From positions 451,684-515,683 of the forward strand of contig OZ244720.1 of the NCBI GenBank assembly GCA_965219085.1: a DNA stretch of 64,000 nt, read 5' to 3'. Source of the DNA: Dehalococcoidia bacterium (GTDB lineage: Bacteria; Chloroflexota; Dehalococcoidia; UBA2979). The position numbers and the translations under genes are program-made. The notes under the pieces were generated by a model. It made no database searches and was not told the origin of the DNA. It saw only the letters and a list, made by a program, of their open reading frames with translations. Position 1 is the first letter of the stretch. Each line of letters starts with the position of its first letter. This document shows positions 1,620 to 6,644 of this stretch, piece after piece.

Positions 1620-2324
1620 CTACGCGCGGCGCGGGCCGAAGATGACGCGCCCGAGCCGCACCACCGTCGCGCCCTCCTCGATGGCGACCTCGTAGTCCTC
1701 GGTCATGCCCATCGAGAGTTCAGCGAGGCCGTGCGCCTCTGCCAGCTCGCGCAGCTCGCGGAACACGGGGCGCACCAGCTCCGGATCGTCGACCTGCGGC
1801 GCGACCGTCATGAGCCCGACCACCTCGACGTGCCGCAGGTCGGCCGCTCCGCGCAGCAGCTCGCCCACGTCGCCGGGCTCGACGCCCTGCTTCGCCGCTT
1901 CGCCGCCGACGTTGACCTCGAGGTAGCACGGGAGCGGGACGTCGGGGTTGGGCGAACGGCCCTGCTCGGCGCGCCGCTCGATCTCGGTGGCGAGCCGCAG
2001 GGAGTCGAGCGAGTGCAGCACGGCGATGTGCGGGAGCACCTGCCGGACCTTGTTGCGCTGCAACCCGCCGATGAAGTGCCAGCGCGGCGCGAGGCCCATG
2101 CCCGCGGCCTCCTCGGCCTTCGGGACGAGCTCCTGCGCGCGGTTCTCACCGAGGTCGACCTGGCCGGCGGCGAGCGCCTCCTCGACGGCGTCGACAGGGT
2201 GCGTCTTGGTCACGCCGACGATGGTGACCCCGGCGGGGTCGCGCCCGGCGCGCTCACACGCCGCCGCGATGCGCTCGCGGACGGCCTCGAGCCGAGTGGC
2301 GATGGTTGCGGTGCTGGTAGTCAT
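1620..2324 (-). CDS. yggS: YggS family PLP homeostasis protein
   Basis: Alanine-racemase-N-like fold sequence (VTKTHP, HFIGGLQRNK); conserved cell-division-cluster position. Confidence 0.85.
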   Translation of the reverse strand: MTTSTATIATRLEAVRERIAAACERAGRDPAGVTIVGVTKTHPVDAVEEALAAGQVDLGENRAQELVPKAEEAAGMGLAPRWHFIGGLQRNKVRQVLPHIAVLHSLDSLRLATEIERRAEQGRSPNPDVPLPCYLEVNVGGEAAKQGVEPGDVGELLRGAADLRHVEVVGLMTVAPQVDDPELVRPVFRELRELAEAHGLAELSMGMTEDYEVAIEEGATVVRLGRVIFGPRRA

Positions 2325-2655
2325 GCCTCAAGGCTACGCTCCCGGCATGGCCGCCGCCAGACGCGCCGCCGAAACCCAATCGTCACGCGCCTGCCACGGA
2401 CTCGTCACGTGCGTTCACCAGACTGCGCCACAAGACGAGGCGGCGACTCCCGCCGGGGCCGGATGGCCCGCGGGAGCCACCGCCGAGGTCGCCGCACCGT
2501 CCCGACGAGTGCTTCGAGGAGTCGTCAGCGCGAGCCGCTCGGAGGCTTGGTGCGCGGCGGGCAGCCCGCTGCGGCTCGCGTTTGGAGACGGGGAGCCGCC
2601 ACCGGAGGAGGAGTACATCTTCCGCGCGCGGGTTCCCGGATAGGCCGAAGCGTTG

Positions 2656-3135
2656 CTACCGACGGCGCCGCCTTCGGCGAGGCTCGGAGGCGGGTGCGCC
2701 CAGCGGGCACGAGCCGTCGTGTGTGAGCAGGTGCAGATGACCGCGATTCTGGTAGACGCTGCCCCGTGGGTGGTCGACGAGGGCGGGATTTCCGAAGTCC
2801 GCGTGTAGTCTGCGGTCCGAAGAACAGAGCAGCCGTGCTCCAGAGACGCGGGCGAGAGCGATGACATGAGCGTCGTTCGAGACGCATTGGCCCTCGACCT
2901 GGGCCGTCTCCGCTGCCACCTCCTCGGGCGAAATGAATCGGGCGAGCTTCGCGCGCTCCCAGTTCCGGAGCAGCCGTCGAGCATCGCCGACCTCGAAGAG
3001 CTCGTCGAGCAGTCGGCCGCCTGCGACAAGCACTCCCTGCCCGCTAGCGATCCATTCCCAGAGCGGCTCGAGTTCTTGATCGACTGGATCGCCAAAGAAC
3101 CGGGGAGCGACGTTCGCGTCGACGATCGCGCACAC
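2656..3135 (-). CDS. PIN-like domain protein, partner of upstream ATPase
   Basis: Starts MCAIVDANV, later SNDAHV and SSD acidic positions resembling PIN catalytic residues; start codon immediately abuts ATPase stop (3136). Confidence 0.5.
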   Translation of the reverse strand: MCAIVDANVAPRFFGDPVDQELEPLWEWIASGQGVLVAGGRLLDELFEVGDARRLLRNWERAKLARFISPEEVAAETAQVEGQCVSNDAHVIALARVSGARLLCSSDRRLHADFGNPALVDHPRGSVYQNRGHLHLLTHDGSCPLGAPASEPRRRRRRR

Positions 3136-4425
3136 TTACTGGCCAACGCCGAAGAAACGGCGGTCCTCTTCAAGAAAGAAGCTGCGGTAGCCCTCCGGCA
3201 CATCAACGACTCGGCCTGCTGCGTCGACTTCGATCTCGTGGATCTGTACCCCGCCGCGGCCCTGCTCGAAGTACAGGATCATCACGTCACTCGGCCTGAT
3301 CTTTTCGTCGCGCACGTCCATGCGCACGCGGTCGACGAGGTAATCGCTGTGCGTCTCGACGACCACGGGATCCCGGCCGCTTGCAGCCAGTTGGGCGAAG
3401 AAGGAGCCTATCGCGGCTTGCGCGCGTGGGTGCAGGTGGACTTCGGGTTGTTGAATGAGCAGCATCTCCATAGGCGAGGCTGAGACACAGTCTGCGATGA
3501 TCGGGATTGCTTGGCTGACCCCGTAGCCGACATCGATAAGGTTGCGCGCCTTCCCGCCGCGAGCAGGCTTAACCTCGATCTGGAACGGGTCGCTCCCCCG
3601 ACTTCCGAGCCTGCGGATGCCGAGGCTGGCGTACAGACCGCTCGCTTTTCCGAAGTCATTGAGTTCTTCGTTGTAGAGCTTGTCTTCACCCGCTAGCCAC
3701 GCGGCCAGCGTAACCGGGATGTGGTCACCCTCGGGACGGCGGGGCTCCGCCGTCGGATCATAGGTTCGGCGCGGGCTCGTTCGGATTGGCGCGAACGCAT
3801 TGGGTCGGTCTAAAGAATCTCTCAGCGCGCCAACGAGCAGCACAAGGAAAGATTCGCTATGTTCGCGCGCTATGCCGGGGTCGGCCCCGTCAGCCGAGAT
3901 GAGCGTGTGGGTTAGGACTGGCCAGAGGCTGGCAGCTTGACGAGCCCTCTGATCCCGAATCCCCAGCGCGACCGGCCTTTCCAGTACTGTCTCACCCCCG
4001 ACGGAGAACGAGACCGCAGGCTCGCCCCCTTCCAGACCCTTGAGCCCTAGCAGGTACTCCCCTGCAGAGGCGCAGAATTCAGAGATACTCGGCTGAGCGT
4101 CTCGGGATATGAAGCGGGATTCGACTCGCAACTCGTGATGCCGACCTCGATTTAGCGGAAAGTCAGGGCTCTCAAACTCGAACTGTAGCCCCACGGCGAA
4201 GCTCTTCGCCGGACGTCCTCGATTGTTGGCGACCTGGTCGTAGCTGCCGAGGCGGAACGGCTCCTCGTTGAAGTTTGGCTCCATCCGGTCGTGGGCTGCT
4301 CGTACCCCAGCGAGGAACGAGGTTTTGCCCGTGCTGTTCTCCCCCACGAGCAGCGTCAGCGGCCGGATCGGCACCTCGTGGCGGCCCGCGAAGCAGCGGA
4401 AGTCCTCGAGGATCAACGTGTTCAT
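3136..4425 (-). CDS. AAA_21/ABC-type (OLD- or abortive-infection-like) ATPase with degenerate Walker B
   Basis: Walker A GENSTGKTS; Walker B region MLLIQQPEVHLHP (QQ instead of DE); H-loop ETHSDYL; lower-GC region. Confidence 0.8.
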   Translation of the reverse strand: MNTLILEDFRCFAGRHEVPIRPLTLLVGENSTGKTSFLAGVRAAHDRMEPNFNEEPFRLGSYDQVANNRGRPAKSFAVGLQFEFESPDFPLNRGRHHELRVESRFISRDAQPSISEFCASAGEYLLGLKGLEGGEPAVSFSVGGETVLERPVALGIRDQRARQAASLWPVLTHTLISADGADPGIAREHSESFLVLLVGALRDSLDRPNAFAPIRTSPRRTYDPTAEPRRPEGDHIPVTLAAWLAGEDKLYNEELNDFGKASGLYASLGIRRLGSRGSDPFQIEVKPARGGKARNLIDVGYGVSQAIPIIADCVSASPMEMLLIQQPEVHLHPRAQAAIGSFFAQLAASGRDPVVVETHSDYLVDRVRMDVRDEKIRPSDVMILYFEQGRGGVQIHEIEVDAAGRVVDVPEGYRSFFLEEDRRFFGVGQ

Positions 4426-4470
4426 GGCGATCAGTCTACCGTAGCGCCTCGCGGTCGCTCCTCGCGCTCG

Positions 4471-4752
4471 CTACCGCATCCCCGCGAACGGGTCGTCGTC
4501 CTCGATGCCCTCGCGCCGCTCACGGTGCTGGCGCTTGTCGTACCAGTAGATGCCGTACAGCATCGCGGCGAAGAGGCCGACGGGGATGAGCGCGAGCGCG
4601 GGGTGCGTCGCCAGCGCGTAGAACAGGAACAGCACGAGCAGCAGTACGCCTGCCAGGGCGGCGACGGCCGGTAACAGGATCTGGAACGCGATGCGCGAGA
4701 GCAGCAATACTTCCCGGCATCCGCCCGGCGCCTGCTCCTGAGGTTCGTACAT
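4471..4752 (-). CDS. small hypothetical membrane protein
   Basis: Two predicted TM helices; start ambiguous (several in-frame ATG). Confidence 0.3.
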   Translation of the reverse strand: MYEPQEQAPGGCREVLLLSRIAFQILLPAVAALAGVLLLVLFLFYALATHPALALIPVGLFAAMLYGIYWYDKRQHRERREGIEDDDPFAGMR

Positions 4753-4823
4753 GCTCCCAGCATAGCGGCGCATCGCGTCGTGAGCCGCTACCATCCTCGC
4801 GCGCCCGCCGGGAGGCCCCTCGC

Positions 4824-5258
4824 ATGCCTGACACCCGCGTTCCACCGGAGTTCGACGCGTTCCTCGCCGAGCCGCGCAACGCGATCATGTGCATCGCCCG
4901 CGGCACCGGCCGCCCGCCCCACGCCACCCCCGTGTGGTTCGAGTACCGCGACGGCGTGTTCCGCATCTCGATCACCCGCACGCGGGTCAAGTACCGGCTG
5001 CTCCTCGACGCCCCCAACGTCACGCTCGTCGTCGACGACCCCGTGACGTACGGCACTGTCATCGTCTCCGGCCACGCCGCGATCGTGGACGACGACGCCT
5101 CGCTCGTCGCGCTGCGCAAGGCGCTGCGAGCCAAGTACGGCGGTGTCCCCGGCGCCGACGCCGAGACCGATGAGGAGCTCGCCCGCGCGCTCCGCGGGGA
5201 GGAGCGCGTGGTCATCGTCGTCGAGCCGGAGCAGGTGCTGTCCTGGGCGGGCGGCTAG
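4824..5258 (+). CDS. pyridoxamine 5'-phosphate oxidase family (F420-dependent-like) protein
   Basis: 144 aa PPOX-like split-barrel sequence. Confidence 0.75.
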   Translation: MPDTRVPPEFDAFLAEPRNAIMCIARGTGRPPHATPVWFEYRDGVFRISITRTRVKYRLLLDAPNVTLVVDDPVTYGTVIVSGHAAIVDDDASLVALRKALRAKYGGVPGADAETDEELARALRGEERVVIVVEPEQVLSWAGG

Positions 5259-5280
5259 CGCCGCCAATCCCCTACGCGCG

Positions 5281-5999
5281 TCGCCGCGGGTTCTTGAGCC
5301 CGGTCTCCAGCTTGTGCCGCACCTCGCGGCGGACGCGCGCGGCGAGGACGTCCTCGTGCGCGTCGAGGAAGGCGCGGACGGCGTCGGGGTCGCGCTCGGA
5401 GAGGGCGCGCAGCGCCCACGACACCGCCTTCACCACCATGTCGTCGCGGTCGTCGGCGAGCCGTTCGCAGAGCGCGAGCGTGCGCGCCGCGTCACCCGTG
5501 CTGCCCGCGCGCTTCCTGTTGAGTGCGGTGGTTGAGACGAGCGCGGCGCGGGGCCACCCAGCGGTCGGGCGACCGCGACCAGCGGTCGATGACCTCGTCG
5601 CTCAGCGGGCCCGCCACCCACGCCGGGCCCGCGACCAGCGTGCAATTACGCGTCGACCGACCCCCAGTTGTCGATGCCCGCGCCCAGCGCCTCGATCTGG
5701 TCCGCGTGCAGCGAGGCGAGAGCGGCGCGATGGCGCGACAGCAGGAGGTAGGCGAGCGTGCGCTCGTCGTACCCGCCGCTCTCGACGAGCCTCGAGGCCA
5801 GCTCGACGGCCGTGTGCGGCTCCTCCCGCAGCCGACGGGCGAGGTCGCCTGCGATGCCGGGGAGCACGGGCGTCCGCACGCTCCGGATGCGCATCGCCGT
5901 CGCGTGGTAGCCCTCGCCGAAGGCGGCGCGCTTCGGGTCGGCCTCCGCGGTGAGGCGCTCCTCGATCTTGCGCCGCAGCGCGGCGGGCACAGCAGGCAC
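5281..5999 (-). pseudogene. DNA alkylation repair protein (AlkD-like HEAT repeat), disrupted by two frameshifts
   Basis: N-terminal 117 aa in one frame ends at a stop at 5646; homologous continuation LVAGPAWVAGPLSDEVIDRW in the second frame; C-terminus ...RTLALCERLADDRDDMVVKAVSWALR... in the third frame. Confidence 0.5.
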
Positions 6000-6002
6000 A
6001 GG

Positions 6003-6644
6003 CTAGTCGCCGCCCTCGTCCTCCATGCGGCGTCTGCGGTCGTCCAGCGACTCACCCCTGTAGTGCCAGTACAACGGGCCCGCAGCACTCCACTTGTCAG
6101 TCCACGTGATTCCGTGTCGTTGCATGATTTCGGTGGCAGCAGCGGAGAGCGAGGTCTCCTCACCCTCGAAGGTGATCCTGTTGTGCGAAGCCACCGTGGC
6201 GCTGAAGGGCTCCCCGTCGTTGGAGATCTCCCGGTACTGGAATTGTAGTTCGGCTCCGGCCTCGATGCCGACCATGTCGAAGTTGAACCGCTCGCGCTTC
6301 TTGCGGGCCTTGTTCAACGCGAGCCGTGCCTCCTCGTCCTCGACCACATCGGAACCCGGAGTGACGTCGCGACCGCGCGTGAGGCGTAGCGCGGCCTCCA
6401 CGCGGTCGGCACTGACCTCGAAGAACTCACGGTTGCTGCGGACGCGGCGATCGCCGAACACATCATGAAGCAGTCGCTCGGTCTCCGCGGCGTCGTCGAC
6501 TTCCATCGCCACGACGCACTCGAACGGCACCGGAACGCTCGTGGTGTCGAGAGAGCGCAGCCGCTGCTCGATGTTGGTCGTCCGCCCGATCTTCACGAGG
6601 TCGGGCATCGCCGGGTTGGTGAGGCAGTAGACGATCCCGGTCAT
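6003..6644 (-). CDS. GIY-YIG nuclease family protein (T5orf172-type) with C-terminal extra domain
   Basis: Real start MTGIVYCLTNPAMPDLVKIGRT at 6644 (ATG); upstream 123 codons of the ORF are low-complexity artefact. Confidence 0.75.
   Translation of the reverse strand: MTGIVYCLTNPAMPDLVKIGRTTNIEQRLRSLDTTSVPVPFECVVAMEVDDAAETERLLHDVFGDRRVRSNREFFEVSADRVEAALRLTRGRDVTPGSDVVEDEEARLALNKARKKRERFNFDMVGIEAGAELQFQYREISNDGEPFSATVASHNRITFEGEETSLSAAATEIMQRHGITWTDKWSAAGPLYWHYRGESLDDRRRRMEDEGGD

Follow-up and report, generated by a model that had tools for sequence, protein, structure and literature searches.

The ATPase gene and the PIN-domain nuclease gene found next to yggS in a Dehalococcoidia bacterium are, with an estimated probability of about 0.6, a self-contained two-gene module of the type represented by HEC-03 (Hma-embedded candidate 03) and by NsnB-NsnC of Menshen, which acts in anti-phage abortive infection. 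They are located in a stretch of 64,000 nucleotides (nt) of contig OZ244720.1 (assembly GCA_965219085.1, positions 451,684 to 515,683), which is referred to as the window and whose numbering is used for the coordinates below. A first-pass annotation of the window had listed the pair as a candidate defense module. This candidacy is supported by the homology of the ATPase to its counterparts in HEC-03 and Menshen, which are experimentally validated anti-phage systems, and a role of the pair in defense is proposed on the basis of this homology.

The coupled ATPase and PIN genes

Both genes are on the minus strand. The ATPase gene (3136–4425) starts with ATG, ends with a TAA stop codon at 3136–3138 and encodes an ABC-type ATPase of 429 amino acid residues, which possesses an AAA_15/AAA_21 core and a DUF3696-like C-terminus and is similar to NsnB and HEC-03A. 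The PIN gene (2656–3135) encodes a polypeptide of 159 amino acid residues and starts with GTG at 3133–3135. The TAA of the ATPase gene and the GTG of the PIN gene, with 0 nt between them, form a translational coupling junction at 3133–3138. The positions, the strand and the abutting start and stop codons of the two open reading frames (ORFs) were the same as those given in the first-pass annotation, and the motifs quoted there, which are the Walker A motif GENSTGKTS, the LLIQQPEVHLHP motif and the N-terminus MCAIVDANV, were all found. GTG as the start codon of the PIN gene is backed by the near-invariant M1 and C2 across the N-termini of 48 homologs. In 88 loci, the distance between the ATPase stop and the PIN start ranged from -20 to +21 nt with a mode of 2–3 nt and a single outlier of +83 nt, and tight gene coupling is the norm in the ATPase-PIN family. 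The PIN protein has 438 homologs and the ATPase has more than 7,600, and the ratio of nonsynonymous to synonymous substitution rates (dN/dS) was about 0.2 for the two genes alike. Given these numbers of homologs and this dN/dS ratio, the two ORFs are real genes and not chance ORFs. No Rfam match was found in the region of 2200–4900, and a scan of the locus for consensus promoters and terminators found nothing.

The ATPase is a DUF3696-type ABC ATPase of the AAA_15/AAA_21 (OLD-ABC) clade. It matched AAA_15 (9e-17) and AAA_21 (4e-14) of Pfam and, weakly at its C-terminus, DUF3696 (E = 0.0028). Among 49 family members, all 49 matched AAA_15 and AAA_21, and 25 matched DUF3696, the best with an E value of 8e-9. 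The best matches to the PADLOC models were NsnB (1.7e-45), PDC-M55A (7e-31) and HEC-03B (3e-24), while AriA (a weak match of 2.8e-18), GajA and Old were far below. The PADLOC model for the HEC-03 ATPase (PDLC04148, 3e-24) spans residues 160–413. An AlphaFold2 model of the ATPase (pLDDT 79) resembles the heads of Rad50, SMC, OLD, GajA and PtuA. The only match found by sequence in the PDB was the Thermus OLD nuclease 6p74, whose IIEEPEMYLHP aligns with LLIQQPEVHLHP.

The hallmarks of the OLD-ABC (AAA_15) clade, namely the Walker A motif, signature motif, H-loop and ABC head fold, are all present in the ATPase. G28, E29, N30, S31, G33 and K34 of its Walker A motif GENSTGKT (residues 28–35; 4321–4344, minus strand) are invariant in 49 homologs. 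The signature-like motif GYGVSQ (residues 300–305; 3511–3528, minus strand), in which G300, Y301, G302, S304 and Q305 are invariant, is the GxG variant also found in NsnB and HEC-03A, and the THSD H-loop is invariant among the homologs. The DUF3696-like C-terminal module detected with Pfam (residues 376–412; 3190–3300, minus strand) is predicted, by analogy, to be the docking site for the PIN partner. Between the conserved cores lies a hypervariable central region (residues ~81–200; 3826–4185, minus strand), in which the frequency of the commonest residue per column was 0.26–0.35 (0.52 in the block of residues 101–120) vs. 0.64–0.90 in most of the core (0.48 at residues 241–260). The ATPase homologs were often broken by tblastn into two parts, corresponding to residues 1–70 and 207–427. 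In the AlphaFold2 model, the central region consists of beta strands at residues 96–151 and helices at residues 168–205, and it is a candidate sensor surface.

The Walker B region of the ATPase reads QQPE (residues 325–328; 3442–3453, minus strand; ttcgggttgttg on the plus strand, which is the reverse complement of CAA CAA CCC GAA), where OLD-type ATPases possess EEPE. Its QQ aligns with the EE of 6p74, and the acidic dyad (EE/DE) that includes the catalytic glutamate is absent. Of the 120 closest homologs, 119 possess QQ, and so do 141 of another 144 representatives (clustered at 50%) whose identities went down to ~38%, which gives 260 of 264 ATPase homologs in total. The first-pass annotation had regarded this Walker B motif as an oddity of the locus. 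The motif is present as described, but it is not peculiar to the locus, as QQ is fixed across the subfamily. The Walker B motif of the HEC-03 ATPase is FMEQPEIHLHP, and its plasmid-borne relatives likewise possess EQ. NsnB is reported to have EN in its Walker B motif together with the GxG signature and an arginine replacing the Q-loop glutamine (PMC12065111). Because HEC-03A has EQ and NsnB has EN, loss of the catalytic glutamate is a trait of the clade: it is absent throughout the DUF3696 clade, including the members with demonstrated defense. The part that is specific to the QQ subfamily is the additional loss of the first Walker B acid. Based on the classical E-to-Q mutants of ABC ATPases, it is reasonable to expect that the ATPase binds ATP without hydrolyzing it fast.

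The match of the 159-residue protein to Pfam PIN (PF01850) was marginal, with 21.2 bits compared to the gathering cut-off of 23.6. Of its 48 family members, 14 matched Pfam PIN at E ≤ 1e-3 (best 1.7e-6), and no other family was matched. A sequence search of the PDB with the PIN profile alignment returned chance matches only, so that a comparison of folds was needed, and this comparison revealed that the protein has a PIN fold. Its catalytic-type acids D6 (3118–3120), E45 (3001–3003), D88 (2872–2874) and D107 (2815–2817; all on the minus strand) are in canonical PIN spacing. In the 48 sequences, D88 and D107 were invariant, D6 and E45 were at least 90% conserved, and D113 was also invariant. 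The PIN-like nuclease partner suspected at first is therefore borne out by the fold and by the intact acids: judged from its residues, the protein is a PIN nuclease that keeps the D-E-D-D constellation and is predicted to possess nuclease activity. In this PIN subfamily, C84, C143 and H90 are invariant and C2 and H133 are near-invariant, which suggests a putative structural metal site.

Relatives of the PIN protein were searched for in one genome per species of 185,579 species, and at least 461 loci were found. In all 80 retrieved loci, an ATPase homolog was located directly upstream of the PIN gene on the same strand; one of these loci, L005, retains no more than the last 35 codons of the ATPase gene. 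These loci span Chloroflexota, Acidobacteriota, Planctomycetota, Latescibacterota, Gemmatimonadota, Verrucomicrobiota, Proteobacteria, Spirochaetia, Rhodothermales and others. Neighboring genes of the 80 loci were clustered in search of a third component, such as an NsnA/DUF262-like one, with in-house ORF calls that are unreliable on high-GC (guanine plus cytosine) loci and were used only for this clustering and for the choice of neighbors. No other gene was found in more than 7 loci, and there is thus no NsnA/DUF262 partner. The ATPase and PIN genes form an obligate pair without a third partner. In two independent assemblies, the PIN gene is intact and the ATPase gene, which aligns over its full length, is split in two (L086, 8716–9996, 266 and 88 residues; L087, 1076–2356, 221 and 88 residues); these two ATPase genes are probably pseudogenes. 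One locus (L022, 8638–12339) contains two QQ ATPase-PIN pairs in tandem, whose ATPases are ~35% identical; the PIN protein of the second pair scores above the cut-off of Pfam PIN.

Exchange of the pair at the yggS site

In close relatives, the genes at this site are in the order of recG, T5orf172, DNA_alkylation, PNPOx, a small ORF, ATPase, PIN, yggS, proC and yggT. The pair is part of an accessory cassette of ~2.07 kb (2397–4467, unstranded) that is absent from related genomes and whose ends were defined by alignment of the indel. Two genomes, L173 and L174, represent the empty site: their YggS is 90% identical and the synteny is the same, but the pair is absent, and yggS comes 88 nt after the small ORF. 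In blastn comparisons with these two genomes, homology ends just after the stop codon of the small upstream ORF and resumes at CGCGTGACG. The GC content of the exact indel is 64.9% vs. 72.3% for its flanks, and along the sequence it is 0.61–0.64 across 2751–4500 vs. 0.72–0.74 on either side. Neither target-site duplications nor terminal inverted repeats were found at the ends of the indel, and no tRNA gene was found in the first 12 kb of the window.

Compared with genomes whose flanking proteins are 94–97% identical, the ATPase is only 65–69% identical and the PIN protein 77–79%. The synonymous divergence (dS) of the pair is 0.64–1.39 vs. 0.12–0.26 for RecG, PNPOx, YggS and ProC, or 4–7 times higher. 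This pattern reflects neither decay nor merely faster protein evolution. Because the high dS of the pair is accompanied by a dN/dS ratio near 0.2, old functional alleles were swapped into a younger backbone. The cassette is accessory, is horizontally exchanged between lineages and is under purifying selection. The lower GC content beside yggS and the horizontal acquisition proposed in the first-pass annotation are thus both confirmed, the latter by the empty sites of close relatives and by a dS that is discordant with that of the flanking genes. Among the yggS loci of the JGI metagenomes, the pair was found in 0 of 80, but the best yggS match among them was only 56% identical, which is too distant for assessing presence and absence at close range.

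The small ORF at 4471–4845 (minus strand) is 46 nt upstream of the ATPase gene, encodes two predicted membrane helices and has no confident family match. It is part of the backbone rather than of the cassette, because it is kept at the empty sites of L173 and L174 and is ~2 kb away from the pair in L004 and L008.

Other genes of this region were also variable. The DNA-alkylation repair gene at 5272–5999 (minus strand) is split into a piece for the N-terminal 117 residues (5646–5999) and a piece for the C-terminal 55 residues (5272–5439). The same gene is also split in L081, a contig that is 99% identical and has an insertion sequence (DDE_Tnp_1) just beyond it, while it is intact in L083, L173 and L174 (212–243 residues). 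The split gene of the window is probably a pseudogene. Just downstream of recG, a T5orf172/MUG113 (GIY-YIG-like) gene at 6006–6644 (minus strand) coincides with a second dip in GC content (0.65–0.69). It is only 66–73% identical in relatives whose RecG is 87–91% identical, and it is present in duplicate in L172. In this short variable stretch, it may be a further gene that evolves fast or is mobile.

Proposed mechanism and alternative explanations

If the pair acts in abortive infection, the DUF3696-type ABC ATPase would bind ATP and form a head-engaged oligomer, for which its strictly conserved Walker A motif, signature motif and H-loop would be used. Turnover of ATP would be slow or nil, as both Walker B acids are replaced by glutamine. 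The oligomer would keep the co-translated PIN protein inactive, probably via the DUF3696 C-terminus; the contact between the two proteins is proposed on the basis of the published NsnB-NsnC models. The hypervariable central insert of the ATPase would recognize a phage-derived cue, and this recognition would alter the complex or free the PIN protein, which would then cut RNA (tRNA, rRNA or mRNA, as VapC-like proteins do) and stop the growth of the infected cell.

Several results weigh against this role of the pair. The 159-residue protein did not match any PADLOC model at E ≤ 1, including that for the HEC-03 PIN, and the hhalign probability between its profile and the HEC-03 PIN (WP_025259137) was a weak 38% over 34 columns. 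In L005 (9888–10465), the PIN ORF is intact and has kept every catalytic-type residue, while the ATPase is reduced to its last 35 codons, and such an orphan fits poorly with a PIN protein that is lethal unless sequestered. No relative was found among the 2.9 million viral contigs of IMG/VR with the PIN profile or among the plasmids of PLSDB with tblastn of the PIN protein. The plasmid matches of the ATPase were at most 30% identical and of the HEC-03/EQ type. In this lineage, the pair is stably located next to housekeeping genes across genomes with YggS identities of only 71–100%. When the two nearest genes on each side of 67 loci were compared with Pfam and PADLOC, the 244 proteins were mostly of varied housekeeping functions. 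Those with defense-type matches were two type III methylases, two mad3-like proteins, one PD-T4-6 kinase, one PDC-S01 and a few AAA_21 ATPases. The argument from defense islands is therefore weak, and the contexts are variable, as expected of a mobile module. Homologs are not usually in defense islands, but one Latescibacterota locus adjoins a CBASS-type operon with SMODS and bacterial HORMA, as well as a DNA methylase, a HEPN protein and another PIN together with an HTH/M78 protein. Another locus adjoins a transposase.

It is possible, although doubtful, that the pair is a toxin-antitoxin (TA)-like addiction module, in which the PIN protein would be a constitutive toxin and the ATPase its neutralizer, and which would be kept by post-segregational killing or genomic stabilization with no dedicated anti-phage role. 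This explanation overlaps with a role in abortive infection, as many such modules also abort infection. The VapC-like fold and residues of the PIN protein, the compact and translationally coupled bicistron, the exchange of alleles at a fixed site and the solitary copies scattered among housekeeping genes, which is typical of TA loci, are all consistent with addiction, and so are the Pfam label of AAA_21 ("putative AbiEii toxin, Type IV TA system") and the toxicity of HEC-03 upon induction. However, the large ATPase gene precedes the toxin gene, which is unlike VapBC, and no DNA-binding antitoxin is present. Moreover, an ATPase of 429 residues that carries a hypervariable insert and whose nucleotide-binding motifs are strictly conserved far exceeds the needs of neutralization, the orphan PIN gene of L005 is intact without its ATPase, and the closest characterized relatives of the pair function in phage defense.

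It is improbable that the two proteins form a housekeeping nuclease complex that is specific to the lineage and functions in RNA processing or DNA repair, similar to the Rad50-Mre11 or RecF-type pairs of ATPase and nuclease. The ATPase model does resemble Rad50 and SMC heads, both genes are under purifying selection, and the pair has a fixed position near recG, the DNA-alkylation repair gene and yggS in the Dehalococcoidia clade (YggS 71–100% identical). A housekeeping function is nevertheless at odds with the absence of the pair from closely related genomes of identical synteny and from the 80 more distant yggS loci, with a dS of 4–7 times that of the flanks, which implies allele replacement, and with a GC content below that of the surroundings. 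Its patchy spread over many phyla beside unrelated neighbors and the existence of decayed copies also argue against it. A further explanation, in which the ATPase would serve a canonical ABC transporter as its nucleotide-binding subunit and the small gene would be unrelated, is scarcely credible: only a generic resemblance of ABC-type P-loops speaks for it, while AAA_15, AAA_21 and DUF3696 are the best Pfam matches and the PIN partner is conserved in 80 of 80 loci. This explanation was rejected, as no ABC_tran match of Pfam and no adjacent permease gene were found and the head fold is of the SMC/Rad50/OLD/GajA type.

The abortive-infection module of the HEC-03/Menshen type remains the preferred explanation. 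A bolder and rather unlikely extension of it is that the QQ clade comprises obligately non-hydrolyzing ABC "ATP-latches" whose signal is ATP occupancy, and that a stand-alone, active PIN protein with a DUF3696 ATPase is ancestral to NsnC of Menshen. In such a latch, the PIN protein would be locked as long as ATP keeps the ATPase heads engaged and would be freed by depletion of the nucleotide, caused by the phage or by another immune system, or by a phage protein that pries the heads apart. NsnC would then have been derived through inactivation of the PIN domain into an adaptor and addition of a separate nuclease.

Significance and comparison with known systems

With HEC-03, a system of this kind had already been described in 2024, and the locus opens no new category. 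So far, immunity of the HEC-03-type ATPase and PIN has been tested in one Pseudomonas system (bioRxiv 10.1101/2024.01.29.577857). If the pair functions in defense, the HEC-03 type would be extended to a large, previously unlabeled clade, as the QQ motif was found in more than 150 clusters (50% identity) from uncultured Chloroflexota, Acidobacteriota, Planctomycetota, Latescibacterota and other phyla. Because PADLOC-DB v2.0.0 contains no model that matches the PIN protein, the pair is probably not called as a complete system. Natural variants with two glutamines in Walker B could show whether sensor ATPases need hydrolysis or binding of ATP alone, a question explicitly left open by the authors of HEC. 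In addition, with its empty site, divergent alleles and raised dS, the locus illustrates clearly how a defense-type cassette is swapped in nature at a fixed chromosomal site.

PARIS, Gabija, Septu and AbiL had been named as the systems that the pair resembles, but the closest ones identified with PADLOC and BLASTP were HEC-03 and NsnB-NsnC of Menshen. Similar to the pair, PARIS (AriA and AriB) consists of two genes for an AAA_15/21-type ABC ATPase and a nuclease toxin. Its ATPase scaffold sequesters the nuclease and frees it upon ATP-dependent detection of a phage protein (PMC11464382), which makes PARIS a mechanistic template and, among pairs of this kind, the one whose mechanism has been worked out best. 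Different from the pair, however, the effector AriB is of the Toprim/DUF4435 type and not PIN, AriA lacks DUF3696, and the homology is much weaker than that to NsnB and HEC-03. OLD nucleases and GajA of Gabija belong to the same clade of ABC ATPases (AAA_15), but in these proteins the ATPase and a Toprim nuclease form a single polypeptide and the Walker B motif is the canonical EE, whereas the PIN protein of the window is separate and its ATPase has QQ. Compared with VapBC, the pair has no VapB antitoxin, its upstream partner is an ATPase of 429 residues, and its gene order and regulatory logic are different.

Menshen (NsnA-NsnB-NsnC; Millman et al. 2022) has been analyzed in PMC12065111. NsnB is the closest PADLOC match of the ATPase and shares with it AAA_15 and DUF3696, the GxG signature and a Walker B motif without the catalytic glutamate. 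The downstream partner of the ATPase has a PIN fold, and the N-terminal domain of NsnC is also of the PIN type; in AlphaFold 3 models, this PIN-like domain sits on the DUF3696 dimer (PMC12065111). However, the PIN domain of NsnC is an inactive adaptor that is fused to a separate nuclease or toxin domain at the C-terminus, whereas the PIN protein of the window stands alone with intact catalytic acids. Moreover, NsnA (ParB-DUF262 and ParBDB) is located upstream in Menshen, whereas the small ORF with two membrane helices and the PNPOx gene are upstream of the pair.

HEC-03 of Pseudomonas cichorii (WP_025259138 and WP_025259137; Payne et al., bioRxiv 10.1101/2024.01.29.577857) reduces the plaquing of Escherichia coli phages, for which both genes are needed, and its induction is toxic (bioRxiv 10.1101/2024.01.29.577857). 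Similar to the pair, it is a two-gene operon in which a DUF3696 ABC ATPase gene is followed by a gene for a VapC-like PIN protein of 157 residues; the two genes overlap by 14 nt in HEC-03 and abut in the window. HEC-03A was 26% identical to the ATPase over 233 residues in BLASTP (E 9e-20). The motifs PxR, VG(F/Y)GVSQ (VGFGVSQ as the signature of HEC-03A), (E/Q)QPExHLHP and E(S/T)HS are common to both ATPases. In each of them, the catalytic Walker B glutamate is replaced by glutamine, but the full pair is EQ in HEC-03A and QQ in the window. The two PIN proteins share an N-terminal V-(D/E)-x-N-V-A strand and a (S/N)D-x-x-h-h-A-h-A-R-x-S-G-A core. They differ in that Pfam PIN is scored by the PIN protein of the window and not by HEC-03B, and in their cysteines, which are C2, C84 and C143 together with histidines in the former and CxxxC...CxxxxC in the latter. 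Anti-phage activity has been demonstrated for HEC-03, whereas the pair is known from its sequence.

Three-gene units of the HEC-03 type were found on plasmids of Rhodococcus, Aeromonas and Azotobacter (L089, 3989–6551; L090, 3998–6626; L091, 3998–6616). They consist of a DUF3696 ATPase gene (EQ), an overlapping gene for a small HEC-03B-like PIN protein and, directly downstream, an RNA ligase gene (PF09414, 1e-32). The presence of an RNA ligase next to an effector that cuts RNA suggests that these plasmid units themselves provide for the repair or reset of RNA after cleavage. Different from these plasmid-borne copies, the window does not contain an RNA ligase gene.

As the PIN model was not matched, the pair is not HEC-03 as defined by PADLOC. 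It would function similarly to HEC-03 and is best filed as a divergent, unlabeled subfamily of the HEC-03 kind and not as Menshen.

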